Source: Nanobdellota archaeon
GTDB taxonomy: Archaea; Nanobdellota; Nanobdellia; Pacearchaeales; GW2011-AR1
Assembly (NCBI GenBank): GCA_038045945.1
Contig: JBBSXC010000003.1
Coordinates: forward strand, 21,859-85,858
Reading direction: 5' to 3'
DNA length: 64,000 nucleotides
A program made the translations under genes and the position numbers. The notes under the pieces are model-generated. The model saw only the letters and a list, made by a program, of their open reading frames with translations, was not told the origin of the DNA and made no database searches. The first letter of the stretch is position 1. Every line of letters starts with the position of its first letter. Of the stretch, positions 10,773 through 34,466 are shown piece after piece.

Positions 10773-10774
10773 AA

Positions 10775-11275
10775 CTAATCTTTCCTCCTTTCGTAAGAAG
10801 ACTCAATACCTAATTTGTGTCTGACCTGAGAAACAACACGCCTACCAACATCATAGCCAAGTGAAGCAAGATAAGAAGCAATATCCCTATCACTAAAAGG
10901 AGCATTACTATCCTCGCTATCAATGTAAGATTTAACTTCATCAAAGACGTATTGGGGAATCTTGTTTCTTTCTCTCTCACTACTAGCTAATATTTCAGCA
11001 TTCTTAACAACATCCTCAATACTACAAGAAATAGGAGGAGAAAGACGAAGATTTTGAAGAAAACCTGTATAGGGTTTACCACCACTACCGCCCAATAAAT
11101 CAAGTTGCAACTTAGAGCGATCATAAACATTAGATCTATCATAAACTTTAGGAAGATCAGCACCACGAGAATAATTAGACTTAGCACTAGGAGGCGGAGA
11201 TGGGCTCTTATAACCGGGTCTGCCAGGAATATTCAACCTTTTCTTACGACCGCGAAACTTACCAGGCTTAGCCAT
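10775..11275 (-). CDS. Gly/Pro/Ser-rich protein with a C-terminal HTH resembling sigma-70 region 4 (operon gene 2)
   Basis: The N-terminus is low complexity (PGRPGYKSPSPPPSAK). The C-terminus SDRDIASYLASLGYDVGRRVVSQVRHKLGI matches the helix-turn-helix pattern of sigma region 4.2 and LuxR-type proteins. Confidence 0.35.
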   Translation of the reverse strand: MAKPGKFRGRKKRLNIPGRPGYKSPSPPPSAKSNYSRGADLPKVYDRSNVYDRSKLQLDLLGGSGGKPYTGFLQNLRLSPPISCSIEDVVKNAEILASSERERNKIPQYVFDEVKSYIDSEDSNAPFSDRDIASYLASLGYDVGRRVVSQVRHKLGIESSYERRKD

Positions 11276-11277
11276 GA

Positions 11278-19140: not shown

Positions 19141-20730
19141 TTATATGTCTTGATGGTAGTAAGCAAGCCAAGCATCAACAAACTTTCTCCCATCTTTATC
19201 TAAAAACTTTCTGTAAGACTTGTAATCATTACTATTAGATTTAGACTTTACTTCTCTTAATTTACCAATTCCGGATCTTGAGACTACCATCGTATCTTCA
19301 ACGTCTACATTACCCTTACTATCTCGGCATTCTTCAATTGCCACTTCTAGTGATGCAGCAATTGTTGGGAAAAAGGGGCCAAATGCTGGATCATTCTTAT
19401 CAAAATCTTTATTGTTCAACTTGGCAAATAATCTTGATTGATACTCTGTTAATCTTTCGCCTCTAACATCTGAATTTGCTTGTGCGAAACTCTTAGCAAA
19501 ATAAGCAACAATTTTATCCTTTGATGCTAACTTAGCGTACCTGTCAAAACCTTGTTGAATCATGCCATCAGCAGTTTCATAGTCTAAATATTCCTGGCTA
19601 CTTTCTGAAACGAAAGATGTTTGTTTGCCTTCAAAAATCTCATCTTTTGGTTGATAAAGCATTCCCCTAACTTCTTGATCTGATAATTGTCTTCTTTCTG
19701 GAATTAATGAAGAAGCATAAATGCCAAAACCTATTAGTCCGCCAAGCCCTAATGCTCCTAAACCAAACCTTCTAGTATACTTTTTGAATTCATTCATTAC
19801 GTGAGACTTATCAAGTGTTCTTTCTAAGTTTTCTTTAAGGTCTGTACCGTTGCTAAACCTTTTATTTTCATCAATATTAAGTCCTTTTGAAAAGAACTTT
19901 CTTATCCTTCTGTCACTAATTTTCTCTTTAATTCTTCTATCTATGAATTCTTGTATAGCCTCTTTACTTGAACTCTTTATCTCATCATAACTTAAACCCT
20001 CTAGGGGGTATTCCCCAGTTTTTAACTTAAACATTAATGCTGTAGCACTATAGGTGTCTGTTCTCTTTGTAGGGTGACTCCCTTCATTAAAAAGTTCTGG
20101 GGCTCTAGTTAAAAACCATCCGATATTATCTCTTGGGGACTGAGTCATTCCCATACCTTCAACCGTTGATGCACCAAAATCATTAAGTAACAATCGTCCC
20201 TCTAAATTAATGGCAAAATTTCCCGGATGACCATCACCATGGACTCTGTTTAGTCCTGCCTTTGAGTGAACTTCGCTATATGCCGTTGCAATATCCCTCA
20301 CATAATGATCAAAATGGGGTTCTACCTTCTCCTCCCATGATGAAGGATTATAAGGATTATCTTTTGCTATAACCTCTAACATTTTATCTAAAAACATGTC
20401 GTAAGGGGGCATTACAATGAATCTTCTACCATTCTTATCGACTTCAAATCTTGTTGGAACAACTCTTGAACAAGCAGAAAGCTGAACAGCCTCATTATCC
20501 ATTGCTTTATTCTCATCAAGATTTCTCTTAGGCATCTTACCTAAAGCTTCATCCGTTGGAGCAAAAACTTTTATTGCAACATCCTGGCCCGTTATTCTGT
20601 CTTTACCCTTATAAACAATACCCCAAGAGCCCATACCGTAAATCTCTGCAGGATCAAAAGAATACCTATAAGAATCAATGATCCCAGGGTTCCCCCTTCT
20701 AGAGACAAAAGAATTATCCGTTTCAGTCAT
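19141..20730 (-). CDS. Membrane-spanning Hanks-type Ser/Thr protein kinase, copy 2
   Basis: GMGSWGIVYKGKD...VAIKVF. Catalytic loop VHGDGHPGNFAINL. DFG in LLLNDFGAS. TRAPELF...SHPT. TM helix FGLGALGLGGLIGFGIYASSLI. C-terminal domain of about 190 aa. Confidence 0.7.
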   Translation of the reverse strand: MTETDNSFVSRRGNPGIIDSYRYSFDPAEIYGMGSWGIVYKGKDRITGQDVAIKVFAPTDEALGKMPKRNLDENKAMDNEAVQLSACSRVVPTRFEVDKNGRRFIVMPPYDMFLDKMLEVIAKDNPYNPSSWEEKVEPHFDHYVRDIATAYSEVHSKAGLNRVHGDGHPGNFAINLEGRLLLNDFGASTVEGMGMTQSPRDNIGWFLTRAPELFNEGSHPTKRTDTYSATALMFKLKTGEYPLEGLSYDEIKSSSKEAIQEFIDRRIKEKISDRRIRKFFSKGLNIDENKRFSNGTDLKENLERTLDKSHVMNEFKKYTRRFGLGALGLGGLIGFGIYASSLIPERRQLSDQEVRGMLYQPKDEIFEGKQTSFVSESSQEYLDYETADGMIQQGFDRYAKLASKDKIVAYFAKSFAQANSDVRGERLTEYQSRLFAKLNNKDFDKNDPAFGPFFPTIAASLEVAIEECRDSKGNVDVEDTMVVSRSGIGKLREVKSKSNSNDYKSYRKFLDKDGRKFVDAWLAYYHQDI

Positions 20731-20903
20731 TTCTTTACCTCCTTTTCTTCAACCTTTATTTTGTCTTCTAAAACATCAATAGACAACTTAACAATCATAC
20801 CAGGCTTAAGGTGCTGCTCAAGAATTCTCGGAACAACAATGATTGCCTGGCTACCATGCTTAGCAATACGCTTAGTGATAATAAAGTTTTGTTTAGAAGT
20901 CAT
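20727..20903 (-). CDS. AbrB/MazE-like swapped-hairpin protein, 58 aa, translationally coupled to kinase 2. It is under the 60 aa track cutoff.
   Basis: Translated by hand as MTSKQNFIITKRIAKHGSQAIIVVPRILEQHLKPGMIVKLSIDVLEDKIKVEEKEVKK. Its stop overlaps the kinase ATG (ATGA). It is paralogous to 15184..15342. Confidence 0.45.
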   Translation of the reverse strand: MTSKQNFIITKRIAKHGSQAIIVVPRILEQHLKPGMIVKLSIDVLEDKIKVEEKEVKK

Positions 20904-21214
20904 TACTCATGCCACCCTTCCATTGATGAATCAAGAGATTTAGGAGAATACCTAAGAGAAAGAAGTCTAACAAGCGGCTCTAAAACTCTTTTTTCTTCAG
21001 GTTTAAAACCCTTAATAGAATGACTACCAGAAAAATGATCTGGGCGTACTAATGAATCCTCAAGGACACTTCTTAACAAATCGTTAAAAGAGGTATAATT
21101 TCTAACTTTCATATCGAAAACAGTTTCACCGCTCTGATTACCAAAAAGACTAATAAAAGTATAACTACAAATACCCTCTTCATCAGTTCTTTTAAGTGAA
21201 ACTTGGTAAGCCAT
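20903..21214 (-). CDS. Hypothetical protein, first gene of the kinase-2 operon
   Basis: Start chosen at MAYQVSLKRTDEEG..., about 104 aa. Its stop shares one nucleotide with the small AbrB-like start (TAATG). The longer 130 aa start in the track would run through an AT-rich promoter-like stretch. Confidence 0.3.
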   Translation of the reverse strand: MAYQVSLKRTDEEGICSYTFISLFGNQSGETVFDMKVRNYTSFNDLLRSVLEDSLVRPDHFSGSHSIKGFKPEEKRVLEPLVRLLSLRYSPKSLDSSMEGWHE

Positions 21215-21318
21215 ATTTTTATTATAAATTATACATCCTTTATGTATAGAAAATGGAAGCAAAAAGGGTATAAAAACCTTACTAAATGTAATCACTAAAG
21301 AGTTACACTAAAATGAGT

Positions 21319-21699
21319 TTAATTGTTTTCGTTAGGTGTTTCTTCGGCTAAGTATCCTTTTATCTCATCAATTATCGTCTTTAGTTCTTCTGTTTGTGGA
21401 ATTTTTCCTTCTTCAACTAAAACATTTCTCGCTTTCCTGATAATTTTACTATAAGGGGTTTTTGATAGTGAAGATTGTTCTGCTCCCATGCATAAAGTTG
21501 ACTTAAATAATAAATCTGGCGAATAAATACCTTTTTCTAGATTAAGTAATTGTCCTCTAGGGGAAACTGTTTCTTCTTTCATAACTTTGTAAACTGGGTC
21601 TAAAGCTTTACAAAAACCGCTATGAACATTATCAACCATTAATTCTGATACTTCTTCCCTAGCATTATGAGACTCGACACTTCCTTGATTTTCAACCAT
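21319..21699 (-). CDS. Hypothetical protein
   Basis: 126 aa. Its stop lies 8 nt inside the upstream FAD oxidase gene. Confidence 0.35.
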   Translation of the reverse strand: MVENQGSVESHNAREEVSELMVDNVHSGFCKALDPVYKVMKEETVSPRGQLLNLEKGIYSPDLLFKSTLCMGAEQSSLSKTPYSKIIRKARNVLVEEGKIPQTEELKTIIDEIKGYLAEETPNENN

Positions 21700-22969
21700 T
21701 TTTTATTTCCTCTCCACTTATAACTTTGTTAATAATTTCCTCTTCCTTCTTTTCCTCTTCTTCATCAATCTTCTTAATTATTTCAGCGATTGATTCCTTA
21801 GTTGGCAGTCCTAACTTTTCATCAAGGTCGACAATAACCCCTCTATTAAGTTTGTTGTTAGGATCGTAACGTTTCTTTATTCTTTGAGCTAATTTTTTGT
21901 CATTAATATCCATAAAATTCTTTTTTGTTTTACCAAAGCCGAAAGTTCCAGCAATGTTCCCTCTAATTTTTTTGACAAATAATCGCAAATCATTAATAGC
22001 TGAAAAGTCATTAGCTGAGAAAAGAGGGTTAACCAAACCGATGCCTAAATTAGCATGATAAGGAATTTTTTGTGAATCTAAATAATTAGCAACTTCTATT
22101 AGTCTGTCTAAGAAAACTCTAGGGTCTTCAACACGAACATAGCCAGAAAGAGAAGCATTCTTGTAAAGATCATCAATAATCCTTATCTTATTATTATAAA
22201 TATCTCCCTTAATGTCACCTCTATCCGACTCAAACTCTATAAACAAATGGTTAATTCTGCTTAAACCTAGTATTTCTGAAAGCATAGGTGAAATAAGATG
22301 AATCATGCTTACTTGGTTATCCATCTTAAGAGTTCTTGATAAATCAATGATTTTTAGTAAATCGGCAGAACGATAAACTGTTAATGACCTTTTAGGCTTA
22401 TCAATAACTTTTAACTTAGCAGAGTATATTATGCCTGTTATTCCTTCCATTCCTACAACGTTTGATGCGTCTATACGTCCAAGTTTTACAACTTTGCTAT
22501 GACCATCAATTATTTCTATTTCTAAAACATGATCAGCTACTCGCTTATACTTTGCACTTCTTGGGCCTGTCGCATTTGTTGCTATCATTCCGCCAATAGT
22601 ACAAATTGATCCTGACTGAGGATTAATAGGGAACTCCAAATTATACTTTGATAATTCTTGGTTTAAGTCATTAAGAATTATTCCAGCTTGAACATAAACA
22701 ACCTTTTTGTTAATATCAACATCTAAAATCTTGTCCATTTTTGACAAATCAACAACGACTGATCCCTCAGAAGGAACACATCCTCCAACAACTCCGCTCC
22801 CACCACCTCTAATGGTTATGTTATGATTCTCATGAACTATCTTGCGTAATTCTTCATCCGTTGTTGGAGTAAAAACGCTTATTGGATTATTACTTATTCC
22901 ACTTGCATCAGTTGAGTAAGCATTAATCGCGAGTTCCCTATCAATAACCTCTGACTTCTTATCTGTCAT
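21692..22969 (-). CDS. FAD-linked oxidase (PCMH-type FAD-binding domain), GlcD/D-lactate dehydrogenase-like
   Basis: NHNITIRGGGSGVVGGCVPSEGSVVVDLSKMDKILDVDINKKVVYVQAGIILNDL ... GSICTIGGMIATNATG is the FAD_binding_4 signature. Confidence 0.7.
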   Translation of the reverse strand: MTDKKSEVIDRELAINAYSTDASGISNNPISVFTPTTDEELRKIVHENHNITIRGGGSGVVGGCVPSEGSVVVDLSKMDKILDVDINKKVVYVQAGIILNDLNQELSKYNLEFPINPQSGSICTIGGMIATNATGPRSAKYKRVADHVLEIEIIDGHSKVVKLGRIDASNVVGMEGITGIIYSAKLKVIDKPKRSLTVYRSADLLKIIDLSRTLKMDNQVSMIHLISPMLSEILGLSRINHLFIEFESDRGDIKGDIYNNKIRIIDDLYKNASLSGYVRVEDPRVFLDRLIEVANYLDSQKIPYHANLGIGLVNPLFSANDFSAINDLRLFVKKIRGNIAGTFGFGKTKKNFMDINDKKLAQRIKKRYDPNNKLNRGVIVDLDEKLGLPTKESIAEIIKKIDEEEEKKEEEIINKVISGEEIKNG

Positions 22970-23748
22970 ATCTTAACCTCAATTTTACTAATGCCCAAAG
23001 CATGAGTTAACAACTGCGACATCTCTAAAACTTCTAAGCCAGAATTATTCTTATCATTATTCCTCTTCAAATGCTCATAATCCATAATGCCAATAGTTAC
23101 TAAACTATTAAAACCAGAATTTTTCACTTGGTTAAGACGTAAAATTGATGCCTCATCAGCTATTTGAGGATTAGTATAAGGCAAACCACCCGAACTTCCA
23201 GAATCAATAGTATTAACCTTAGAATTATGCAACTCCTTAACAGTATGGCCTAAAATACTCAAAAGTTTCCTTGGCTGCTCAATAATACTACTATACCTGC
23301 TCAAGTATGGAGAATCATGAAGTACTAAATCAAAACCAACATCCCGAAAAACCCTTCTTCCAAGCATTTTTTGAGTTATTGGAATGATTGCGTTAACAAC
23401 TTCCAAATCCCAATCCATCAAGAAATCCTTATAATCAATAAGTAAAGCCTTGTAACAAGAGGGACATGTAGTTATAATCTTGGTAACGCCTAAAGCTCGT
23501 AAGAGCTTTAAGTTTTTACGAGCTATCTTAATGAATTCTTTCTCAAAACCTAGTTCTATTGCTAATGAACCACAAATAAACGGTTTAGAAAGGCCCAAAT
23601 CCTTATCAGTAAGGAATGGTATCCCCAACTTCTTCATTATTAACTCATAATTATTCCTTATAGCCAAATTTTCATACTTTCCTAAAAGACAACCTGTATG
23701 AAGAAGAGTCTTACCTTTACCAATACCAAAAAACTCTTTTATACCCAT
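22966..23748 (-). CDS. Cysteine-rich CCG-domain Fe-S protein (GlcF/LutA-like partner of the FAD oxidase)
   Basis: CPSC motif in IITTCPSCYKAL with a second Cys cluster upstream. 4-nt overlap with the oxidase gene. Confidence 0.5.
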   Translation of the reverse strand: MGIKEFFGIGKGKTLLHTGCLLGKYENLAIRNNYELIMKKLGIPFLTDKDLGLSKPFICGSLAIELGFEKEFIKIARKNLKLLRALGVTKIITTCPSCYKALLIDYKDFLMDWDLEVVNAIIPITQKMLGRRVFRDVGFDLVLHDSPYLSRYSSIIEQPRKLLSILGHTVKELHNSKVNTIDSGSSGGLPYTNPQIADEASILRLNQVKNSGFNSLVTIGIMDYEHLKRNNDKNNSGLEVLEMSQLLTHALGISKIEVKI

Positions 23749-23871
23749 AAAAAGAGAAGAAAAGCAACCATTTTAAGCTTTAAGATTGTTCAATATATGT
23801 TTTATAATCTTAATGGCCAAAAGTGTAAACATTTTCTTGCTTTAAAGCGCTCTAACACCCTTTTAGAATAA

Positions 23872-24399
23872 TTAATCACTAGAAGTCAAATTCTGAACAT
23901 ACAAACCAATTTCTGAACCTATAACGCTAGTAAAACCCGAAAAGTATTTTTCCCTAATAAAAGTCATAGGCAAAACAACCTCTCCATTAGCGCCATAATC
24001 CTTAGAGAAAACTTTCAATAATTCTCTATTGTCATCATCATAAGACATCTCATAAAGATTAAGCTTAACCAAACGATTATTATCCTTCAATCCCTGAACG
24101 AAAGACTTACCTTCTAAACAAGAAGTACAATTAACAGCCTCATAAAAATAGTTTATTTCAACAAGCTTACTAATATTCTTAGAAAGAGAAGCTGTATCAT
24201 CAAGAGACTTAACAACATTAGAATTAATAGTCTGAGAAGAAGGAAGAGTGAAAAAGTAAACAAGGACAAGAATGACCGAAATGGCAAAAATTGCATTAGG
24301 CAAAGTCACAAACTTCTTCCAATAAGGCATAGAAGCCTCTTTTTTGTAAGGCTCAAATGAACCAGCCTTGCCCAAGTCAACAATAGCATCATCAACCAT
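23872..24399 (-). CDS. Membrane-anchored thioredoxin-like protein with a CxxC motif
   Basis: TM helix FVTLPNAIFAISVILVLVYFF, then NCTSCLEGKSF in a region predicted thioredoxin-fold. Confidence 0.35.
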   Translation of the reverse strand: MVDDAIVDLGKAGSFEPYKKEASMPYWKKFVTLPNAIFAISVILVLVYFFTLPSSQTINSNVVKSLDDTASLSKNISKLVEINYFYEAVNCTSCLEGKSFVQGLKDNNRLVKLNLYEMSYDDDNRELLKVFSKDYGANGEVVLPMTFIREKYFSGFTSVIGSEIGLYVQNLTSSD

Positions 24400-24460
24400 G
24401 AAGAAAATTATGATGAATGTTATTTATAAGGGTTATGATGTAGCAAAAAAGAATAAAAAA

Positions 24461-25045
24461 TCACAAAAAATAAACGATCATAGTAGTAATTATTGAACCC
24501 AAAGCCGCAACTGCCATATCCTTCTGAGCATCCCAAACGTCTCCTTGCGCACCCAAAAAAGATATTCCAGCCTTATTATCAGCTGTTTTAGCAACAAACC
24601 ACTCAATAATCTCAAAAAGACCAGAAGTAGCAACGATAAACTCCAAAGGAAAATAATAAGCCCAAAAACCATTAACTAACCCAAAATTAACCATTAATTC
24701 CATTATTGGATAAGTTAATAACAAACCATAAGAAAAATGAACAAGACGATCATACATATTCCTCTTAGTGCCAAATAACCCCCCAACTATTCTGCCTATT
24801 GGTGTCTTAGCATAAGTATAGTGTGAACCAACAACATGAAGAATCAAAAAAAGAGTGATTAAAGAATAAGAAACTAAAGACAAAGGAAAAAACTTAACAG
24901 AAAGGAACAATAAAGGCAAAAGAACAACAACCAATATGTTCTCTAAAAACCAAGCATCACGATGAAGAGGCTTAACACCAGACCAAAACCAAAAAAGGAA
25001 GAAAACGCATAATAGAGATAAAAGGTAAAAGTCAAGCATGAACAA
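24461..25045 (-). CDS. Polytopic membrane protein, unknown family
   Basis: 194 aa, about 5 TM helices. Confidence 0.4.
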   Translation of the reverse strand: MFMLDFYLLSLLCVFFLFWFWSGVKPLHRDAWFLENILVVVLLPLLFLSVKFFPLSLVSYSLITLFLILHVVGSHYTYAKTPIGRIVGGLFGTKRNMYDRLVHFSYGLLLTYPIMELMVNFGLVNGFWAYYFPLEFIVATSGLFEIIEWFVAKTADNKAGISFLGAQGDVWDAQKDMAVAALGSIITTMIVYFL

Positions 25046-25221
25046 TAAAATACTCAGACTTATTTATAAATATTCACTAAAAACACTTAAAAAACTTTTA
25101 GTTTTTTAGGCCTCGAGATTTAAAAATCTCAAAGCTGAGAAGTTTTTCAAACTTCAATACTTAAGATTCTGCGTATCAAAGAATCTTAAAGCTTAAAAAC
25201 ATGTGTGTATAATAATTTTTT

Positions 25222-25983
25222 ATGAAGATTGTATCATGGAACATTAACGGAATAAACTCATCAATAAGAGACGGAATTCTTGACTTTATCAAAAAAGACG
25301 ATGCTGACATATACTGCTTTCAAGAAGTTAAAAGCGACCCTAAAGCAGCAATAGAATCAGAAGTGGTGAAAGGAAAATACCATGCTTTTTGGCACGCAGC
25401 AAAAAAGAAAGGTTACAGCGGACTATTAGTATTAACTAAACAAAAACCTTTAGCAATAATAGAAGGAATAGGAAACTGGGAATTTGATGATGAAGGAAGA
25501 TTCCAAGCATTAGAATACGATGACTTCGTACTAGTAAACACTTACTTCCCAAACTCAAGAGAAGGACTAAGCAGACTAGAATTCAAAATGAAGTTTAACG
25601 AAGAATACTTAGAATTCATGAAAAAGTTAGAAAAAGAAACAAAAAAGCCATTAATAATGACTGGTGACTTCAACGTAGCACACAAAGAAATAGATTTAGC
25701 AAACCCTAAAGCAAACGAGAAAAATGCTGGTTTCTCAATACAAGAAAGAGAATGGTTCACAAAACTATTAGAATCAGGATTCGTTGACACATTCAGAGAA
25801 TTTGACAAAAGCGCAGGAAAATACACTTGGTGGACTTATCGTTTCGGTGCTCGCGCTAGAAACATTGGTTGGCGTATAGACTACTTTGTGGTAAGCAAAA
25901 AATTTATGAGCAAAATAAAGAAAAGTTATATTATGCCAGAAATAAAAGGAAGCGACCACGCAGTAATAGTTCTAGAAATATAA
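25222..25983 (+). CDS. xth: Exodeoxyribonuclease III / AP endonuclease (Xth/APE1 family)
   Basis: MKIVSWNINGI...DADIYCFQEVK ... NTYFPNS ... GDFNVAH ... WTYRF ... SDHAVIVLEI are the canonical EEP-fold motifs. 'tgtataat' lies 8-15 nt upstream of the ATG. Confidence 0.8.
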   Translation: MKIVSWNINGINSSIRDGILDFIKKDDADIYCFQEVKSDPKAAIESEVVKGKYHAFWHAAKKKGYSGLLVLTKQKPLAIIEGIGNWEFDDEGRFQALEYDDFVLVNTYFPNSREGLSRLEFKMKFNEEYLEFMKKLEKETKKPLIMTGDFNVAHKEIDLANPKANEKNAGFSIQEREWFTKLLESGFVDTFREFDKSAGKYTWWTYRFGARARNIGWRIDYFVVSKKFMSKIKKSYIMPEIKGSDHAVIVLEI

Positions 25984-26018
25984 TAATACTTAAATAATAA
26001 GAAATAATAATCATTATC

Positions 26019-26357
26019 ATGTCTGATTCTGAAGATATTGCTGCAATAATAATCAACCCAGTTTTTGAAAGGTACGGAGAAATGGGAAGAGTAAACTTCA
26101 AAACAAATAGGAATGGGTACTTTGATGTTATCTTTAGTGACGGAGAAATTGTTAGCTTACCAACAGGTTATGATGGCATAGAATTATACTACCTTAATGG
26201 AGATGACAGAGAAACAGGTTTTGACGCGCTTGAAAGAAAATACTCTGATATAAACGAAAGAAAGGGAAGGTCGGAGGGACTTGACATAACAGAGATTTTT
26301 GATTTAGAATTCTGCGAATTATTTGACAAAGAAAAACTAAGAAGAATCTTAGAATAA
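26019..26357 (+). CDS. Hypothetical protein, member 1 of a three-gene tandem paralog family
   Basis: 112 aa. Contains VIFSDGEIVSLPTGYDGIELYY and LDITEIF, both shared with the next two genes. Confidence 0.45.
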   Translation: MSDSEDIAAIIINPVFERYGEMGRVNFKTNRNGYFDVIFSDGEIVSLPTGYDGIELYYLNGDDRETGFDALERKYSDINERKGRSEGLDITEIFDLEFCELFDKEKLRRILE

Positions 26358-26383
26358 CATTAATAAATAATAAATAACCTTTT

Positions 26384-26731
26384 TTGTCCATGCCCCACAC
26401 ACCTTTACCATATGATGTATTCACTGATGATATGGTAATACTAGTTTTAGACAGAACTCATCCTAGATTTGGTCAATTAGCAAAAGTTGAAGCAAAAAGA
26501 GCACAAAACTACCTTGTAGGATTTGCTGATGGAGAATTAGAATCAATACCTAGATTATCATCAGTAATGGAAGACTATTATAGGCAAAAAGACATGAGGA
26601 GCCAAAGACTTGACATAACTCATAATGCTGGTATTGAAAGCCTCAAAAAAAGGTTTTGGGAAGTAGCTAGAAAAGATGTAGGGAGACTAGAAGAAGAATA
26701 CCATGAATTATTCAGAGAACACTTAGAATAA
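26384..26731 (+). CDS. Hypothetical protein, member 2 of the tandem paralog family
   Basis: 115 aa. VGFADGELESIPRLSSVMEDYY ... RLDITHNAGIE. Confidence 0.45.
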   Translation: MSMPHTPLPYDVFTDDMVILVLDRTHPRFGQLAKVEAKRAQNYLVGFADGELESIPRLSSVMEDYYRQKDMRSQRLDITHNAGIESLKKRFWEVARKDVGRLEEEYHELFREHLE

Positions 26732-26782
26732 AAAATAATGATTATATTAAAGAGTAATAATGTTTAAATTATCATTATTTTA

Positions 26783-27130
26783 TTGTTTACTAAGAAAAAA
26801 ATGGTTGGTGCTGTAAGTCTTAATGAACTTGTAGCTTTGATTACTACTAATTTTAACCAAAGCACTGGTAGAGCAGAATTTGTTGCCATGGCTAAAGTTA
26901 CTGGTAAATGCGATGAAGGAATAGAACTCTTATTAGCTGATGGAACACCAGCAATTGCTGATTATGATGATCCAGAAGTAAAATTGTTCTATAGAAGTGT
27001 ATCCACTGAAAAAAACGGTTATAACGGTGTTTTTCAACTTTTACAAAAATATCGTGACGCAGCAAGAGTGCCAACAGAATACATTTGCAGAGAATACGAA
27101 ATTCTTTTCGGTGAAGAATTCCCAATATAA
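26783..27130 (+). CDS. Hypothetical protein, member 3 of the tandem paralog family
   Basis: 115 aa. LLLADGTPAIADYDDPEVKLFY. The same F/L-(S/A)-DG-(E/T)...(S/A)-(L/I)-P...Y-Y motif is present but more diverged. Confidence 0.4.
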   Translation: MFTKKKMVGAVSLNELVALITTNFNQSTGRAEFVAMAKVTGKCDEGIELLLADGTPAIADYDDPEVKLFYRSVSTEKNGYNGVFQLLQKYRDAARVPTEYICREYEILFGEEFPI

Positions 27131-27198
27131 AAAAAGGATTTGTTAACACTATTATTTTTACACAAACCTTTAAATACGTTTTTTTCTTCACAAAAACA

Positions 27199-28440
27199 AT
27201 GAATAAGAGGGATAATACTTTAACAATTTTAGGACTATCAATAATAATGATAATGCTAATAAGTCTTACCCTAGTTAGTGCTAAATCAGAAAACTCTGGA
27301 GGAGAATCAGGAAATTCTCCTAACTCTGGAAGTTCATCAAACTCCGCAAATTCTGGAAGTTCAGCAAATTCAGGTAAATCGGAATCAAGTAACTCAAACA
27401 ACAATAAAGGAAAATCATTATCTATTAGTTCGAATGAAGAAGTATCAATTAACAAAGATAAAGATGATGATAGTGATGACGTTGATGACGATAACGATAG
27501 TGATGATGCTGGCGACGATAACGATAGTGATGATGATGGCGATGATAGTGATGTTAAGAAAGAATCAAAAAAGTCGTTTGAGTTCGAATCAGAATTAGAA
27601 ATTGAGGAAGAATCGGGTAAATTCAAAATCAAACTATCCAGCGGTAAACAAAAAGATTTGGATGTCGAACCAGAATTAGCAAAATCAATAGCTTTTGACA
27701 AATTCAAAGGTGACAGATTTAACATCACAATAAACGAATCAAACGGATCAGTAACTTATGAAGCTGTAGCTTTCAAAAACGGAAAATTTTTGTGGTTATT
27801 CAACAAAGAGGTCGTAATTAAAGCATCTATTGATTCTGTAAGCGGAAACGTAACAATCAAGAAACCCTGGTGGGCATTATTTGTATCAGGGGAAGACGAT
27901 GACCAATCAAACTCCTCAAAAATAGTTATTTGCCACGTTCCTGGAGGAAACCCTAACAACGGACAAACAATAACTATTGGTAGCCCAGCACTTAAAGCCC
28001 ACTTAAAACACGGAGACGTGTTAGGAGAATGCAACAATAACGCCACAAACCAAACCAACCAAACAAACAGCACACAACCAGTTAACCAAACCAATAACAC
28101 GCAACCTGGTAACATTACTAACCAGACTAACCAATCTAACCAATCATCACTAGCTATAGCCCTTATCTCTCCTCAAAACTTAAGCGTTCACAACTCATCA
28201 ATAATACCTCTTGAATTCTCAATAACTAACACAAGCCTTGCTGAATGCTTCTTCAACTTAGACCTTAACAACCAAACAACAATCATTAATTGCGAGAACA
28301 CTTCAATAAACTCCGCTATTGGTAACCACTCTATTTACCTAACTATAAAAGAGGGAAACAACTCAGCTATTTCCAACACTCACCAATTCTCAATAATAAC
28401 AAACACTAGCAGCGAGAATAATTCTTCACAACAAAATTAG
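27199..28440 (+). CDS. Secreted low-complexity surface protein with poly-Asp repeats and clustered N-glycosylation sequons
   Basis: Signal/TM LTILGLSIIMIMLISLTLVSA. SGSS(S/A)NSANSG repeats. DDDSDDVDDDNDSDDAGDDNDSDDDGDDSD. Runs of N-x-T/S sequons (NQTNQTNSTQPVNQTNNTQPGNITNQTNQSNQSS). Confidence 0.55.
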   Translation: MNKRDNTLTILGLSIIMIMLISLTLVSAKSENSGGESGNSPNSGSSSNSANSGSSANSGKSESSNSNNNKGKSLSISSNEEVSINKDKDDDSDDVDDDNDSDDAGDDNDSDDDGDDSDVKKESKKSFEFESELEIEEESGKFKIKLSSGKQKDLDVEPELAKSIAFDKFKGDRFNITINESNGSVTYEAVAFKNGKFLWLFNKEVVIKASIDSVSGNVTIKKPWWALFVSGEDDDQSNSSKIVICHVPGGNPNNGQTITIGSPALKAHLKHGDVLGECNNNATNQTNQTNSTQPVNQTNNTQPGNITNQTNQSNQSSLAIALISPQNLSVHNSSIIPLEFSITNTSLAECFFNLDLNNQTTIINCENTSINSAIGNHSIYLTIKEGNNSAISNTHQFSIITNTSSENNSSQQN

Positions 28441-28484
28441 TATCAGAAAGCTTTTTAATACCTTAAAATTAACTAGTAACATCT

Positions 28485-28556
28485 GCCTCAATAGTATATC
28501 GGTTAGTACACTTGCCTGTCGCGCAGGAGAGCCGGGTTCGATTCCCGGTTGGGGCG
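28485..28556 (+). tRNA. tRNA-Asp, anticodon GTC
   Basis: Folded by hand. Acceptor GCCTCAA/TTGGGGC. D-arm GTAT...GTAC. Anticodon stem CTTGC/GCAGG with loop CTGTCGC (anticodon GTC). T-arm CCGGG-TTCGATT-CCCGG. Discriminator G. CCA is not encoded. Confidence 0.8.
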
Positions 28557-28557
28557 T
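28545..28557 (+). repeat. Direct repeat copy 1 (ccggttggggcgt), the 3' end of tRNA-Asp; putative attL
   Basis: Exact 12-13 nt GC-rich match to copies at 28880-28892 and 33302-33313. Confidence 0.6.
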
Positions 28558-28879
28558 GATATATTTTTGTGCTTTTACGGAGCCTCCTAAAAAAAGGTTA
28601 AGTAAATGCACAAAATAATTCTTGTTATTTTTTAGGGGTCGTATACAAAAAGTAGCAGTCGCTTAAATTAAGCGAATGTTTTAATAAAATATGAAAATCA
28701 ACATTTACAAAGATCAAGAGAGCTAAGAGAGATAAACATACCTAAGCTTTTTATTTTTTAGACCTATACACTCTAGTCCGACAAGATTTATAAATCAATA
28801 GAAGCACAGACTGTCAACGATAAAAAACGCTTTCATAAAAAAAAGCGTGACCCTAAAAAATAACAAGAACGTATCATCG

Positions 28880-28892
28880 CCGGTTGGGGCGT
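28880..28892 (+). repeat. Direct repeat copy 2 (ccggttggggcgt-aata), putative internal att
   Basis: Matches the tRNA 3' end including the following (g/a)ata. Preceding bases loosely resemble a degraded T-arm. Confidence 0.55.
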
Positions 28893-29009
28893 AATACCTT
28901 CTAGGCATATTTGGTGGGCATTGTACCTGTTTTAACATTGTCTCGAGCAGAGCGTTGATGATTTAAATAGACCTCTATAAAAAAGAATAGAGGTTAGTCA
29001 TTGTAAATT

Positions 29010-29984
29010 TTATTCTTTGAAAGGATACTGATTATACTTAACATAATGGTCGAATAATACAATACTTTCAACATCTAAAATAATGTCAGAAAATGATGTT
29101 CTCATTTCAGTTATCATGCTTTGCAATTCTTTTTGGTTTTTCACCTCGTATATAATCTCGAAGTTCCAACTACCTACACTCTCTATATAGAATATAACAT
29201 TTTTATGATTAATACAATAATCAAATAAAGCTTGTTTTCTTTCTTGTGTTAAATTTTGGGTTTTTAGAAAAAGTTGGTAGCTCTGGTAACCAAACTCTTG
29301 ACAATGTATTTGGGCACTGTACCCTTGTATTATCTCACGTTTTTCTAATTGCTTAAGCCTCAAACGTACAGTGGATACAGGCTCATTAATTGCTTCAGAT
29401 ATTTTAAGAGAAGATATTCTTGAATCTTTTGTAAGTAAACGAATAATGTCTTTATCCAATTCATCAATCTTAGCATCATCAAAATGTTTGCCAAATCTTG
29501 GGGCTATAGTCTTTAAACTTTTTGTATTAAGTAGATACTCTCTTGGAAACTGGACAAGCTCTACTCTTATGGCTACATTTAAATCTTTTAGATATTTATT
29601 ATATTTTGTTGATATTTTGGTTAATACTTCGTTAAACTCTACTATATTTTTAGACATTATTGCAAAAGCTAAGTCGAATCTACCACCAAAGCTAGCAATC
29701 CAATAAATGTGATTATCCTTTTTTAGACCTTCAATAATTATCTTTTTTCTTTTATCATTAACATTTTGAAATCTAGCATAAACTGCATAGCCCGTATAAC
29801 CCATTTTACTAAAATCTAATAATGCGTTAAAACCTGTTATAATTTTTCTTTCTTCAAGACGTTTTAACCTATAATGAGTTCTTTCTTGACTTACACCTAT
29901 TCTTTTTCCTAATTCTGAAGTTCCTAACCTAGCATTAAGGTCTATTTCATATAAAAGCTTTTTATCTTTGGCATCAAGTTCCAT
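29010..29984 (-). CDS. Tandem double-domain Lrp/AsnC-family transcriptional regulator
   Basis: Two HTH repeats (KDKKLLYEIDLNARLGTSELGKRIGVSQERTHYRLKRLEERKII and DKDIIRLLTKDSRISSLKISEAINEPVSTVRLRLKQLEKREII), each followed by a RAM-like domain. Confidence 0.6.
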   Translation of the reverse strand: MELDAKDKKLLYEIDLNARLGTSELGKRIGVSQERTHYRLKRLEERKIITGFNALLDFSKMGYTGYAVYARFQNVNDKRKKIIIEGLKKDNHIYWIASFGGRFDLAFAIMSKNIVEFNEVLTKISTKYNKYLKDLNVAIRVELVQFPREYLLNTKSLKTIAPRFGKHFDDAKIDELDKDIIRLLTKDSRISSLKISEAINEPVSTVRLRLKQLEKREIIQGYSAQIHCQEFGYQSYQLFLKTQNLTQERKQALFDYCINHKNVIFYIESVGSWNFEIIYEVKNQKELQSMITEMRTSFSDIILDVESIVLFDHYVKYNQYPFKE

Positions 29985-30101
29985 ATTTTATATATTGTTA
30001 TATTACTATTTAAATATTGGGTTTTTATAAAAATATTGCTAAGATATTTTATATATTATTAATTCGTTATCACTGCATAGTAAATAACATGGATAATAAA
30101 A

Positions 30102-30491
30102 ATGGAAACCAAAGAAAGAACTCTTAGACTTGGAAACAGATTAAACGACAAACTTAATGGTAATTGGGTTAGACCAAAAAAAGTGTATTATGGTAATGCC
30201 TTGACTCAATTAGGAAAATTTTTAATTAGTGAATCTGATGCTTTTAAATTCCCTGATTCTAGACCCTATTTGGAGAGGTTAGGAATTAAAGTTCTTGGAG
30301 AAATAAGAAACGAGCCAGAATATGAATGCGAAATACCTTCAAATCTTAGGTTAGACCAACAAAATAATGAAAGTTGTTCTGACATGACTACTTTTAATAT
30401 TTATGATGCTTCTGGCAGGAAAGTAGTAAGCTATTGGGTTAAAATTGGGAGAGAATACGATCTTTCTGTAGATCTTAGAGGATTACAATGA
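30102..30491 (+). CDS. Hypothetical protein
   Basis: 129 aa. 4-nt overlap with the next gene. Confidence 0.35.
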   Translation: METKERTLRLGNRLNDKLNGNWVRPKKVYYGNALTQLGKFLISESDAFKFPDSRPYLERLGIKVLGEIRNEPEYECEIPSNLRLDQQNNESCSDMTTFNIYDASGRKVVSYWVKIGREYDLSVDLRGLQ

Positions 30492-31600
30492 AACCCAAAA
30501 GAGAAATAGTTGAGGAAAATCTCTTAGAGCAGTTTAGAGAAATAAGACCTCATATACCCTCTAGAGACCATCAGGCTATTAGCCACTATAAAGATGGTAC
30601 TTTTGGGTTGAGTAGTTTAGGCTTCGCATTATATTCCAATGGTCACAGTTTGAGGGGTCAAAGTAAAACTCGCCCTTATGGGCTAATTTTTGAAAGCGAA
30701 GACACTATGTTCTCTATAGGTTATTATAGAAAGGAACAAGACTCAGCGGAATCAGATGGGCATGTGTTTATTGTAGCCCCAAGAGGTGATAAAGTAATAG
30801 AAGAAGTCAAAAGGTTGACAAAAAGCGTTTTAAATTCTAGTCTTCCTTGTAGGGGAGTTTATGCTAGGTTCTTAACAGTAGATCAGTATAAACAATTATT
30901 ATCTGACGGGTTTTTACCTGCAAAAGAAGCTCCTTGGCATGAAGATTCCCCCGAGGAAGACGAAACTTTAACAAGTTCTCTTGTTAGATTAGAAGATATA
31001 GTTGACTCGCAGAGTCAAATTAGAGTATTACCTTATGGAAGTAGAAACTCTAGAAAAAAGTCTAGGATGACTTATCAGAGGTTTAGAAATTTCCTAGATA
31101 AAAACTGTTTAGAATATGACCTCAGAGACTTTTCTGCAGAAAATTCAGAAGTGGCAAAAAGAATAATTCAAGATCATTTTGACACTTTAAGAGAAGAAGG
31201 AAACCAAATAGGATCAATTCCAGAAGATCATTTTAACTCATGCGACTCAGAAATAATCAAACTGCCATCAGTCATAACACAAATAGGTTATTTAGGAAAC
31301 TTACCTGTGTCTTATTTTTCAGGAGAGATTGTATCAGATTCTAGGTTAGCACTTTATACTCCTTTCACATTACGTTCACCCGAATTAGTTTTACCTAAAA
31401 TCGGGAAAGATGTAAAAGCTAAAGAGGGTTTTAGCGCAATATCTATGTTTGCTTACTTAGAACTTTTAAGAAAATTGAAAGATAAGGGAATAAAGGAAGT
31501 ATTATTTGGAGGCTCGGAACATAGGGATTTGAACAGAATAAAAAGGCAATTTGGGTGCAGAAATGATCCTTCTTACTGGGCAGTTAAGTTGAAGACTTAA
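30488..31600 (+). CDS. Hypothetical protein, 370 aa
   Basis: Non-repetitive ORF. I did not recognise any recombinase motifs. Confidence 0.4.
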   Translation: MKPKREIVEENLLEQFREIRPHIPSRDHQAISHYKDGTFGLSSLGFALYSNGHSLRGQSKTRPYGLIFESEDTMFSIGYYRKEQDSAESDGHVFIVAPRGDKVIEEVKRLTKSVLNSSLPCRGVYARFLTVDQYKQLLSDGFLPAKEAPWHEDSPEEDETLTSSLVRLEDIVDSQSQIRVLPYGSRNSRKKSRMTYQRFRNFLDKNCLEYDLRDFSAENSEVAKRIIQDHFDTLREEGNQIGSIPEDHFNSCDSEIIKLPSVITQIGYLGNLPVSYFSGEIVSDSRLALYTPFTLRSPELVLPKIGKDVKAKEGFSAISMFAYLELLRKLKDKGIKEVLFGGSEHRDLNRIKRQFGCRNDPSYWAVKLKT

Positions 31601-31649
31601 ATATTTTGGTCCTAAAAGTCTCGGTATCGACCGAAGTAAAAAATAGTTT

Positions 31650-31976
31650 TTAGTATCCAAATCTTCTTTCGTAGTTTTTGTGGTCCATCCATTCTAGGAG
31701 TACTGATAATACGCTGACTTTATTGTTTTTTACTGTGTAGATGAGCCTCCATGCGTCTGGAAGGTTATACTTCCATAGGTTTGTTATGTTTCCGTACCTT
31801 TTTGTGTATTCTTTAGGAATAAGATTTTTGGGTATTTGTATTCCACAAAAAGCGTCATCTTGAAGATTCTTAAAAGCCTTAGTTAGTTGTTCTTGAAGAT
31901 TATTCTCTTTAATTCCTTCCAGTTTATCAAATTGTTCCTTAAGTTTCTCATCACCAAAGATTACTTCTGATTTCAT
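31650..31976 (-). CDS. RelE/ParE-like toxin
   Basis: NITNLWKYNLPDAWRLIYTVKNNKVSVLSVLLEWMDHKNYERRFGY matches the RelE/ParE C-terminal signature. Confidence 0.45.
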   Translation of the reverse strand: MKSEVIFGDEKLKEQFDKLEGIKENNLQEQLTKAFKNLQDDAFCGIQIPKNLIPKEYTKRYGNITNLWKYNLPDAWRLIYTVKNNKVSVLSVLLEWMDHKNYERRFGY

Positions 31977-31980
31977 TGTT

Positions 31981-32253
31981 TTATCCTTTCCAAATTAAGT
32001 GTTTCTTCTTTAAGTAAGTCTTAACAGATTCAGGATCCCAAATCCAAGCTATTTTTCCTTCCTTATCAACAGCGATTCTACCAGCATAAAGTAAGTAGTC
32101 AATGATTACAGAAAATGTTTGATACATCATCTTCTTAGGTAACTTCTCCCATAATTGTTTCTTAGTATAAGTTCCACTAGTATCATAAATAATCTTTTCC
32201 ACCATTAATACACTATCTAGTCTTGGATAATGGATTATTTCCTTAATTTCCAT
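31981..32253 (-). CDS. Putative antitoxin / hypothetical protein upstream of the RelE-like toxin
   Basis: 90 aa. Ends 5 nt before the toxin start. Confidence 0.3.
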   Translation of the reverse strand: MEIKEIIHYPRLDSVLMVEKIIYDTSGTYTKKQLWEKLPKKMMYQTFSVIIDYLLYAGRIAVDKEGKIAWIWDPESVKTYLKKKHLIWKG

Positions 32254-32296
32254 AGTTGTATAGACTTATATAACTATATAAATCTTACGATTTGGC

Positions 32297-33241
32297 TTAT
32301 AATGTCCCTTTTAAAATGCTACAAATATGACCTGCTTGCTTACCACTCTTCTGCCATCTTTTGAAAGCTTCACTCGCGCTGATTCTAAATTGTTTTAATG
32401 CTTCTTTTAATTCTGGAGTTGCAAGTCTTTTACCTCTAAGATTTTTTTGCCAATAAAGCCATGCTTTCTCATGATCATAAAAATCAAACTCTACGCCTGC
32501 TTCTTTCTCATGTTTAGCATAACCCTCTAATGTGTCTTCAGGCTCACTTTGAATCTTATAAATGCTTACTAGTTCCTCAACATTATAACCATTATCAGTA
32601 AAGAGTTCTAACACGTGATTGTAAGGGACACGAATACCTATAGCGTCAACAACGACACCCTTTTCAGTTACAACATTTTTAGCTTGTTTTAGAAACAAGT
32701 ATTGATGAGTCAAATACCATCTTTGAAAAACTGTAGGTACATCAAGATATTCTCGAGCAAGAAATTGTGAAGCACTAACCTTCTTATCTAAGGGTTTTTG
32801 AGATGTTGGGATATTAGGAATGTTAGCATATACCAAATCAACCTTTATTTTCTTCTTTATTAGAGGTTCACATAAATCGCCAAGAAATGTTTCAACTATT
32901 GCCTTAGAACCAACCCATTGCTGGGCATTTTCCTGAGCAATTTTAGGCACATTAGGATGAATATCTATTTGGTAAATTCTCTTAGGATGAAATATTTCAA
33001 AAACTCCAATAGAATCAACACCTGCACCTGTACCAATAGTAGCAAAGCTCTCTGGTTTAAAATTAGATTTTTTTAATTCATTAAAACCTAGAAAAGCTGG
33101 GTACAACCAACTATCCTCTGGGTTTTTTGGATCAAAATCATAAGCGTTTTCATTCATAACAACTAATCCTTTCTTCTCAATTCCCACAGAATCAAAAAGC
33201 GGTTTTATATCCAAAGTCCACGTTTTCATAATAAAGGTCAA
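32297..33241 (-). CDS. SAM-dependent methyltransferase, HemK/N6-amino type with a degenerate NPPY (NIPN)
   Basis: Motif I FATIGTGAGVDSIGV. Motif IV position VDLVYANIPNIP. Confidence 0.45.
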   Translation of the reverse strand: MTFIMKTWTLDIKPLFDSVGIEKKGLVVMNENAYDFDPKNPEDSWLYPAFLGFNELKKSNFKPESFATIGTGAGVDSIGVFEIFHPKRIYQIDIHPNVPKIAQENAQQWVGSKAIVETFLGDLCEPLIKKKIKVDLVYANIPNIPTSQKPLDKKVSASQFLAREYLDVPTVFQRWYLTHQYLFLKQAKNVVTEKGVVVDAIGIRVPYNHVLELFTDNGYNVEELVSIYKIQSEPEDTLEGYAKHEKEAGVEFDFYDHEKAWLYWQKNLRGKRLATPELKEALKQFRISASEAFKRWQKSGKQAGHICSILKGTL

Positions 33242-33301
33242 TTAATTAAGTTTAAATTTCTTTTCCTGTGCCCCTAAAATATGCCATAAAGGTCTTGATG
33301 T

Positions 33302-33313
33302 CGGTTGGGGCGT
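33302..33313 (+). repeat. Direct repeat copy 3 (cggttggggcgt), putative attR
   Basis: Lies in the 73-bp gap between the - strand genes ending at 33241 and 33315. The preceding 'ggtcttgatgtcgg' resembles a degenerate T-arm. Confidence 0.55.
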
Positions 33314-33314
33314 T

Positions 33315-34466
33315 TTATTTGTAGTATCTTCTAGAGCTGGCAGGCATAGTGGCCGGGCAAGAGCCATTAGCACTGTAATAAACATCAATAGTCATGTTAT
33401 CAATGACTTTGAAAAATATGAAACCATTAGCACTGTTAGAATTAAAATTATCAAGAATTTGGAAACAATGCTGAACAGTAACTTCATCAGGAAGTTTATA
33501 AGAAGGATTATTAGAAGAAAAATAATTAACAGGGCTCTTAGAACCAAGATTACCAATAGCAACACGTTCTTCATCACCAACAATAGAAATAGGGCTACCA
33601 TAATCACCATCAGAATAATAATCATAAATAGAGCCCTTAACTTCTTTATCCAAGAACCACATGCCAGAAATAGAGCCGGGCACGTCCCTAGAAGCAAAAC
33701 CACAACTCTTAACCTTGAACAAAGTACCGCCACCGCCACCAAACAATTCATAATAAGCAACCTTTTTTTCACCAGAATAAAAATCGTAAGGGCAAACACC
33801 AGAACGAAGATTATAAGAAAAGCCAGCATCATACCTAGCCTGGTTTAAAAACTTGTTAGAAATCTTCCTATCTCTAACAATGAAATCAAAACCAGCAACA
33901 CCACCATCCTGCGGGATATAATAAGCGATAAGGTCACCAGCCTTAAATTTAACAGGCCTAATATTAATCTCCCTACTATCATCCCTCAATTCGTATATCT
34001 GCTCAGAAATTTGCGGAACAACATCCTTAAGGTGGCCGAAAACCAGTTCAACATCACAACCAAGCTCAAACTTAAGAACATAATCAGGAATGTAACCCTC
34101 AGAAGCACCAGGCATTTTGTAACGAGAACCACTAACAAGAATCATATCAGTAGGGGCGTAAATAGGAATCTTCTGGTTTTTGAATTCTTCCTTAATACTA
34201 ACATAAGAACGCTCAACAATAGATTTACCAAAACCATGAACAACACCAATCTGACCAACCTTTTGAACATAAACAGGATCAATAAAGTATTCTGAAAACA
34301 TAATATCACAATCATCAGCCAGGGATTGACCAAAAAAACTATCATTTACTGACCTGTTACCATAACCTTCAGGATTAGTATCTGAAGGAGGATTATGATT
34401 AAGAATAAAAATGATTACTACAAAAACAAAAATAATTATTGGAACAAAAATCAAACCCTTTTTCAC
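33315..34466 (-). CDS. Secreted protein, unknown function
   Basis: Signal/TM LIFVPIIIFVFVVIIFIL. 383 aa, non-repetitive, Gly/Tyr-rich. Confidence 0.45.
   Translation of the reverse strand: MKKGLIFVPIIIFVFVVIIFILNHNPPSDTNPEGYGNRSVNDSFFGQSLADDCDIMFSEYFIDPVYVQKVGQIGVVHGFGKSIVERSYVSIKEEFKNQKIPIYAPTDMILVSGSRYKMPGASEGYIPDYVLKFELGCDVELVFGHLKDVVPQISEQIYELRDDSREINIRPVKFKAGDLIAYYIPQDGGVAGFDFIVRDRKISNKFLNQARYDAGFSYNLRSGVCPYDFYSGEKKVAYYELFGGGGGTLFKVKSCGFASRDVPGSISGMWFLDKEVKGSIYDYYSDGDYGSPISIVGDEERVAIGNLGSKSPVNYFSSNNPSYKLPDEVTVQHCFQILDNFNSNSANGFIFFKVIDNMTIDVYYSANGSCPATMPASSRRYYK

Follow-up and report, generated by a model that had tools for sequence, protein, structure and literature searches.

A 4.8-kb stretch downstream of the tRNA-Asp gene of a DPANN archaeon from 0.1-µm-filtered Hainich groundwater probably consists of two tandem units that lack an integrase, are flanked by attachment (att) sites and were placed at this gene by a tyrosine integrase. 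The integrase would belong to a family of DPANN elements that resemble integrative and conjugative elements (ICEs); the units themselves are similar to the cis-mobilizable elements (CIMEs) of bacteria. The stretch lies in contig JBBSXC010000003.1 (assembly GCA_038045945.1), of which 64,000 nt were analysed (i.e. the window); NCBI lists the organism as 'Nanoarchaeota archaeon', with locus tags AABW73_. The window units represent a well-known kind of genomic island and not a new mechanism. Support for an integration at the 3' end of tRNA-Asp by two tandem events, as proposed in the original prediction, was obtained from the polarity of the repeats, from a family of integrases located at the same site in other genomes and from modules shared by the ends of the units.

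The tRNA-Asp gene (anticodon GTC; 28485..28556, + strand) is intact, has no encoded CCA and scored 58 bits against Rfam RF00005 (gathering score of 29). ARAGORN reported the same tRNA-Asp(GTC) as the sole tRNA of the window (bounds 28484-28557). This gene is the host attachment site (i.e. the attB side of attL). Its 3' end recurs twice downstream on the same strand. The 13-mer CCGGTTGGGGCGT is present without mismatch at 28545-28557 and 28880-28892, and the copy at 33301-33313 deviates from it at the first base alone, so that the exact core common to all three copies is the 12-mer CGGTTGGGGCGT. The three same-strand repeats of the original prediction were therefore confirmed and their recurrence over 12–13 nt held in the shorter form, but not in the longer one at the third copy. 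Core copy 1 (28546..28557, +) comprises the tRNA's final 11 nt, with the discriminator G among them, and 1 nt beyond; core copy 2 (28881..28892, +) marks the junction of units 1 and 2; and core copy 3 (33302..33313, +) is the distal junction (attR). The start-to-start distances are 335 and 4421 bp, and a host gene (33315-34466, - strand) ends 2 nt past core copy 3. The insert is hence bounded by direct repeats of the tRNA 3' end that lie downstream on the tRNA strand. The three copies of the 12-mer on the + strand compare with a chance expectation of 0.10, and three copies were present in 0 of 100 shuffles of the window, in agreement with the earlier view that such a triplicate is improbable by chance. 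No additional tRNA or tRNA fragment was detected by ARAGORN or Rfam between 27500 and 34500, and the repeats are accordingly not parts of extra intact tRNA genes. A misassembly is unlikely because the window is identical to two independent assemblies of the same population, across 20488-32284 and 20488-41600.

Unit 1 (28558-28892) is a non-coding and highly structured mini-unit with a period of 335 bp. A left-end module (28558-28585, +) follows the tRNA gene, and a right-end module in inverted orientation (28848-28875, -) precedes core copy 2. Repeat analysis additionally identified a hairpin (28565-28615) and, at 28619-28637 / 28851-28869, an inverted repeat of 19 nt without mismatches, whose 19-mer is present nowhere else in the window. 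Folding of unit 1 produced strong z-scores relative to shuffled sequences on both strands (-5.8 and -5.3). These scores stem from the inverted repeats and are found on both strands, and hence provide no argument for an RNA gene. The idea that unit 1 encodes a known RNA was rejected, as Rfam matched only the tRNA, and not unit 1, at E <= 1. A possible second left module in unit 1, at 28613, had a low matrix score (2.4, rank 355 in the scan described below) and no claim is made for it.

Unit 2 (28893-33313) occupies the interval between core copies 2 and 3. Its left-end module, AATACCTTCTAGGCATATTTGGTGGGCA (28893..28920, +), is flush with core copy 2, and its right-end module, AAGACCTTTATGGCATATTTTAGGGGCA (33269..33296, -), is located 5 nt before core copy 3. 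The two ends form an imperfect inverted repeat of 28 nt with 75% identity, and their outer 20 nt contain one mismatch in 17 specified bases. The 46-nt stretches ending at core copies 2 and 3 are 72% identical, indicating that units 1 and 2 share related right ends. The sequence before these two copies had originally been interpreted as a degraded T-arm. This interpretation was not upheld: the 17 nt preceding each copy match the T-arm at 3 of 17 positions, which is the level expected by chance, and instead correspond to the element-end module in inverted orientation.

The same site was examined in other genomes by scanning metagenome contigs with the last 20 nt of the tRNA, which yielded 119 loci (numbered with the prefix L). 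A comparison set of 59 non-redundant tRNA-Asp loci was defined by identity to the window tRNA at 55 or more of 72 positions. Thirteen extra copies of the core (<= 1 mismatch) were present in 11 of these 59 loci, all of them downstream and on the tRNA strand (146 kb scanned). No extra core was found in the 59 loci upstream of tRNA-Asp (162 kb) or on the opposite strand. In nearly all loci, the block of identity starts no more than one base away from the first C of CGGTTGGGGCGT. The gene for SerRS is conserved upstream of tRNA-Asp in L143, L150 and L152, and the downstream side is variable. These observations suggest that elements have integrated repeatedly at the 3' end of tRNA-Asp, making it a hot spot in Pacearchaeota/Woesearchaeota-type DPANN archaea.

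The cargo between cores is varied in these loci and mostly integrase-less. It consists of a double-Lrp regulator (31% identical to that of the window) and a B12-radical-SAM enzyme in L063; an HTH_10 regulator, a methyltransferase and a radical-SAM enzyme in L101; a Fic protein in L109; single small open reading frames (ORFs) in L034 and L114; and a 39-nt scar in L038. Further integrase-less units lie between cores in L037 and L142. Between tRNA-Asp and the integrase gene, five mini-units are found in L147 (9545-9917) and one in L145 (9811-9916), each of 82–185 nt. In each, a left module and an inverted right module, with an A-rich/GATTCTC spacer between them, accompany a core whose centre is degenerate, CGGNNNGGGCGT. 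These mini-units could be scars, units resembling miniature inverted-repeat transposable elements (MITEs) or integrase-binding arm sites; the 335-bp unit 1 of the window is a unit of this kind. Two other arrangements were noted. In L087 (~2510-2580, tRNA-oriented), the tRNA-Asp gene seems to be interrupted past the anticodon region by an insertion or intron, ccctgtcaacaaatgcgacagtacggatg, and the same end module, ATAACCTTTTTGACCAT, comes after the gene. In L119 (four copies with 40-nt spacing, 924-1054) and L133 (two copies, ~7249-7290), the 20-nt search pattern forms a tandem repeat that is unrelated to an intact tRNA-Asp.

A module of ~28 nt follows the core in the integrase-bearing loci. 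It reads RATACCTTnnTGGCAY, followed by 5–8 nt and then a G-rich box, as exemplified by AATACCTTTGTGGCAT in L064 and by L092, L069, L142, L143, L145 and L147; the counterpart in the window is AATACCTTCTAGGCATATTTGGTGGGCA, after core copy 2. The left end of unit 2 matches the left ends in L064, L092, L142, L145 and L147. An inverted copy of the module is situated ~5 nt before the distal cores of L142, L145, L147 and L152, as in both window units. A position weight matrix (PWM) was derived from 15 left ends of other loci only, and both strands of the window (127,946 positions) were scanned. All four unit ends scored highly: the right and left ends of unit 2 ranked 2nd and 14th, and the left and right ends of unit 1 ranked 18th and 53rd, respectively. 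The four ends are hence assigned as predicted ends of the tRNA-Asp integrase family. Position 8 of the ranking was occupied by the host flank just past core copy 3 (33312-33339, +; GTTTTATTTGTAGTATCTTCTAGAGCTG), which could be a B'-type integrase-binding site overlapping the 3' end of the gene at 33315-34466, or a T-rich coincidence.

At 12 or more loci, a protein of ~384 aa is encoded on the same strand as tRNA-Asp and starts 50–220 nt after it. This protein matched PHROG integrase families (1.8e-14 and 2.2e-13) and contains the integrase motifs in the expected order, i.e. R (DSGxR), RH (YDFRH), W and Y (FGWKKSDKIHYY). A search with this integrase produced 2437 hits; the best-scoring 120 all shared 61% or more identity with the query. 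PF00589 is present in many of the relatives, which are annotated as Pacearchaeota or Nanoarchaeota tyrosine recombinases. A comparison of the integrase sequence with the PDB returned no match. A viral origin was also considered and rejected, as IMG/VR contained no match to the integrase or to the unit 1 repeat.

Integrase genes are present at tRNA-Asp in L062, L064, L069, L092, L143, L145, L147, L150 and L152, and integrase-bearing relatives with the same ends are thus found at the same site as the window units. In three long contigs, L143 (9843-21155), L145 (9749-21155) and L147 (9483-21155), tRNA-Asp is followed in order by the integrase, an N6_N4 methyltransferase, a TrbC/type IV secretion system (T4SS) pilin, a TrbL-like protein and a VirB4/TraC-like ATPase. 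These ICE-like elements of Pacearchaeota-type DPANN archaea, which are also represented by L144, L146, L148 and L149, encode a TrbL-like or PrgI-like protein and a VirB4/TraC-like ATPase with DUF87 and P-loop_TraG. No paper on conjugative or ICE-like elements in DPANN archaea was found in the literature. Other integrases of the family head different cargo: a radical-SAM / restriction-modification island in L150, and a 7.5-kb defence island in L062, where the integrase lies within the island between two cores. The smallest arrangement was detected in L152 (9899-11289), where a lone integrase gene (~1.4 kb) lies between CGGCTGGGGCGT, within the tRNA, and TGGCTGGGGCGT. This repeat matches the local variant of the tRNA, as is expected if the repeat arises by recombination with the resident tRNA.

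No integrase is encoded in the window units. The cargo proteins had no integrase match in Pfam, PHROG, NCBIfam or PADLOC, tblastn of the L062 integrase against the window gave no match, and a profile of eight integrases of the family produced a best E of 0.66 against all six stop-free frames of the 64-kb window. The statement of the original prediction that the element carries no recognisable integrase is thereby extended to the whole window, which is integrase-free for 28 kb upstream and 30 kb downstream of the units. Among the window proteins scanned, there was no other recombinase or transposase and no Cas1, PolB or DDE enzyme, and searches with Pfam, PHROG, NCBIfam and the integrase profile identified no integrase, relaxase or T4SS gene in the units.

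Unit 2 instead carries accessory genes, and the list of cargo given originally was borne out. A tandem double Lrp/AsnC-type regulator of 324 aa (29010..29984, -) matched Pfam HTH_AsnC-type in two stretches (3.5e-19) and NCBIfam Lrp/AsnC, and is divergent from an operon at 30102-31600. The first gene of this operon encodes p129 (30102..30491, +), an orphan protein of 129 aa, and its stop overlaps the start of the second gene. No family match was found for p129 in Pfam, PHROG, NCBIfam or PADLOC; an exhaustive HMMER search of 1.8 billion representatives identified two real homologues; and the single-sequence model (pLDDT of 44, mostly beta strand) was too poor for a structure search. The second gene encodes p370 (30488..31600, +; 370 aa), for which 48 homologues were detected, none with a Pfam domain. 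An AlphaFold (AF2) model from an alignment of 29 members had a pLDDT of 92.3 and a pTM of 0.90. Foldseek matched this model to PDB entries with a probability of 1.0, including 2hqy (a DUF2156 protein), 4v35 (A-PGS), MprF, 5vrv, Sba18/Sbb17 and FemX. The matches encompass the C-terminal domains of alanyl-/lysyl-phosphatidylglycerol synthases (MprF) and the aminoacyl-tRNA-dependent peptide synthases Sba18 and Sbb17. TM scores to 2hqy, 4v35, 5vrv, 9wqy and 7z6a were 0.47–0.58 at sequence identities of 9–14%, and membership of DUF2156/MprF/FemABX was without a Pfam or NCBIfam match at E <= 0.1. On the basis of its model, p370 is predicted to be a tandem-GNAT, aminoacyl-tRNA-transferase-like protein with a DUF2156 / MprF C-terminal / FemX-like fold.

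Homologues of the Lrp regulator and p370 are adjacent in the DPANN genomes L007 (64% and 47% identity), L008, L011 and L019. In L007, the pair lies amid genes for PCNA, AlaX and other housekeeping functions and is not accompanied by core repeats, indicating that it is a movable module and not a conserved neighbourhood of tRNA-Asp. Core repeats were not found around p370 homologues in other genomes, and p129 did not resemble the small ORFs located upstream of p370 genes elsewhere. Several further features of the p370 family were observed. An invariant GGSE...K...G...YW is located at the C terminus (window 30488-31600; L004-L020). The family occurs in DPANN archaea, and members with 28–34% identity are present in Streptomyces, a Rickettsiales metagenome-assembled genome (MAG) and a gammaproteobacterial MAG. 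The upstream gene is usually a divergent regulator, either double-Lrp (L007, L008, L011) or TrmB-like (L006, L009). In L004, a 365-aa ORF directly upstream of the p370 homologue resembles, by eye only, a class II aminoacyl-tRNA-synthetase paralogue.

The remaining cargo genes are all on the - strand. A weak RelE/YoeB-like toxin of 108 aa (31650..31976) matched Pfam YoeB (0.0033), PHROG RelE-like (0.00097) and TIGR02385 (0.00098), all below curated cut-offs. The adjacent p90 (31981..32253; 90 aa) is a putative partner of the toxin (antitoxin or winged helix) with a weak match to the Mnd1 helix-turn-helix domain (0.00036). Homologues of p90 (55%) and of the RelE-like protein (39%) are adjacent in L110 (52-632, tRNA-oriented), upstream of a tRNA-Asp ending at 1684, and this adjacency supports p90 and RelE as one module. 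An integrase fragment is located downstream of tRNA-Asp in the same locus. The last gene (32297..33241), for which a start at the ATG at 33229 is more likely, encodes a class I methyltransferase of 314 aa that is distantly HemK/PrmC-like (TIGR03534, 8.8e-09, far below the cut-off; Pfam PrmA, 0.00042). Logan contig L002, from an independent assembly (ERR3858118, same population), ends at 32284, between the p90 and methyltransferase genes inside unit 2, perhaps because coverage was low or because a breakpoint exists at the strain level. L003, from another sample, spans 30216-32054 and has 5 mismatches to the window.

CIMEs are known to accrete in tandem at the attachment sites of ICEs and of integrative and mobilizable elements (IMEs) within Firmicutes and Streptomyces (PMC5704250). 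Both att junctions of the window units are kept and genes for integration and transfer are absent, and the units consequently correspond to bacterial CIMEs. The relationship of attL and attR to an ICE/IME family extends over the cores and both end modules of both units. Like CIMEs, the window units are att-flanked, without integration or transfer genes and tandemly stacked at the target gene's 3' end, with cargo that includes a toxin-antitoxin pair. They differ from CIMEs in having a DPANN host and in the absence of a resident ICE from the array or the window.

In the scheme that we infer for the chemistry of recombination, the point in the 12-mer at which strands are exchanged, the order in which the units inserted and the function of the sites, attP of the family would consist of an inverted ~28-nt module, ~5 nt, CGGTTGGGGCGT and a direct ~28-nt module. 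This attP would recombine with the same 12 nt at the 3' terminus of tRNA-Asp, rebuilding the tRNA and leaving a second core at the far junction. The integrase would be supplied by the family of integrative, partly conjugative ICE-like elements, and a second event at the same tRNA-Asp would stack units head to tail. Such units would be mobile only if another element in the cell supplied the cognate integrase and would otherwise be fixed. Decay and mobilisation in trans, both of which had been raised in the original prediction, would each be compatible with the window units.

Other elements at tRNA genes resemble the window in part. Tandem arrays with partial-tRNA repeats and degenerate remnants have been described for the tycheposons of Prochlorococcus (bioRxiv 10.1101/2020.12.28.424599) and for archaeal integrated and cryptic integrated elements (PMC6563490). 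As in the window, partial-tRNA repeats lie beside a full tRNA, with integrase-less remnants and accessory cargo between them. The window differs in its 12-nt repeat and the ~28-nt inverted module at its ends, and the related loci differ in their integrase family and in the T4SS-like module linked to it on long contigs. By arrangement alone, the related loci can be likened to pNOB8-type integrases, whose gene remains intact when integrated, beside attL, at a tRNA target. Unlike pNOB8-type integrases, the family appears to have replaced the first catalytic His (YDFRH), and the window has no integrase. In contrast to SSV-type (suicidal) integration, there is no split integrase, no fragment of one occurs in any frame of the window and the related integrases are intact when integrated.

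Several results weigh against integration by this family. The core is short, at just 12 nt, and the islet is not distinct from its flanks in GC content (local GC of ~0.26-0.39). An empty site was sought through homologues of the gene at 33315-34466, which reached at most 60% identity and lay in unrelated neighbourhoods with synteny lost. An exact 34-nt half of the tRNA had no match in the metagenome collection, a 23-nt version had none in viral contigs, and the 20-nt pattern recovered the comparative set and no close relative, so that no empty site was obtained. Right ends of integrase-bearing elements were observed in L062 and L152 only, the ends of the ICE-like elements on long contigs lying beyond 10 kb. 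Finally, the cargo of unit 2 shares nothing with the ICE backbone and does not, therefore, demonstrate descent from an ICE by deletion.

A bolder interpretation, which we regard as unlikely, is that the integrase-less units, instead of being fossils, are non-autonomous, att-bounded cassettes that are inserted, excised and reshuffled in trans by the widespread integrase that DPANN ICE-like elements carry at tRNA-Asp, making tRNA-Asp a lineage-wide gene-capture platform in genome-reduced archaea. The cassettes would range from structured mini-units of ~40 nt and 335 bp to modules of several kb containing a regulator and an enzyme. An integron-like version, in which the tRNA-Asp-linked integrase shuffles cassettes across DPANN archaea and the 335-bp unit is a MITE-like, non-autonomous element, seems quite improbable. 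Very small units ending in cores or core variants are indeed arrayed in L114, L037, L038, L145 and L147, many units consist of a single gene or of a regulator and enzyme module, and the perfect 19-nt inverted repeat of unit 1 suggests little decay. However, the integrase sits downstream of the tRNA, where the units lie, and not on the opposite side, and neither the window nor the arrays of L063, L101, L109 and L142 have an integrase nearby. The units also bring their own regulators and are not promoterless, no identical unit was present in two genomes, and the cores of the L147 array are degenerate in the centre in a manner resembling decay.

The presence of terminal inverted repeats beside direct repeats in unit 2 would also fit a casposon-like or target-specific transposon, with the 12-mer as a target-site duplication and the 28-nt repeats as transposase-binding ends. 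Casposons are known to form tandem insertions in tRNA or ef-2 genes, at the 3' end (PMC6563490), and share with the window their terminal inverted repeats, direct repeats and tRNA 3' target. This explanation is very unlikely, as the units and the window lack Cas1, PolB and a DDE transposase, and the autonomous relatives at tRNA-Asp encode a tyrosine recombinase. Moreover, the right repeat is ~5 nt off the core and the left repeat is flush with it, a spacing that fits core-type sites around a crossover and not a target-site duplication. A self-mobile element with a novel recombinase among its unknown genes, as had been suggested for 30102..31600, is highly improbable. It would be consistent with p129 having no detectable family or confident fold, but p129 has just 129 aa, a low-confidence and mostly beta model and two homologues worldwide, and is absent from other same-ended units and from other p370 loci. 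The proposal is thus unsupported for p129, and for p370 it is rejected on account of a confident tandem-GNAT fold, which is not that of a recombinase; a cognate integrase family for these ends, moreover, already exists. Least credible of all is an absence of any mobility, with the copies of the 12-mer arising by chance or as regulatory motifs (parts of terminators or promoters) in ancestral host DNA. The uniform GC content across the region and the missing empty site would agree with this, but the shuffling result, the strict polarity in 11 other genomes, the family end modules at all four unit ends and the core of L152, which tracks the local tRNA variant, do not. With the idea of a hidden recombinase removed, the 4.8-kb stretch is regarded as acquired and potentially mobilisable accessory DNA.

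Two further regions of the window were noted. Twelve genes whose stops and starts overlap are arranged in a row at 6391-12576 (-); eleven of the products are 116–193 aa and one is 432 aa, and most have no family. One product matched Sigma54_DBD (1.8e-10) and one a Fis-type HTH_8 (4.5e-11), which are unexpected in an archaeon. Genes for eukaryote-type Ser/Thr kinases are located at 13628-15187 (-) and 19141-20730 (-), ~4 kb apart (Pkinase, 1.7e-24 and 1e-14, respectively).

The pair formed by p370 and the double-Lrp regulator includes an uncharacterised family, also found in Streptomyces, that is worth testing. Of greater interest than the window units is the conserved and widespread integrase at tRNA-Asp that heads T4SS-bearing elements of DPANN archaea. 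If these elements are truly conjugative, they would provide a route of gene flow for organisms that are thought to be host-dependent and to have minimal genomes.

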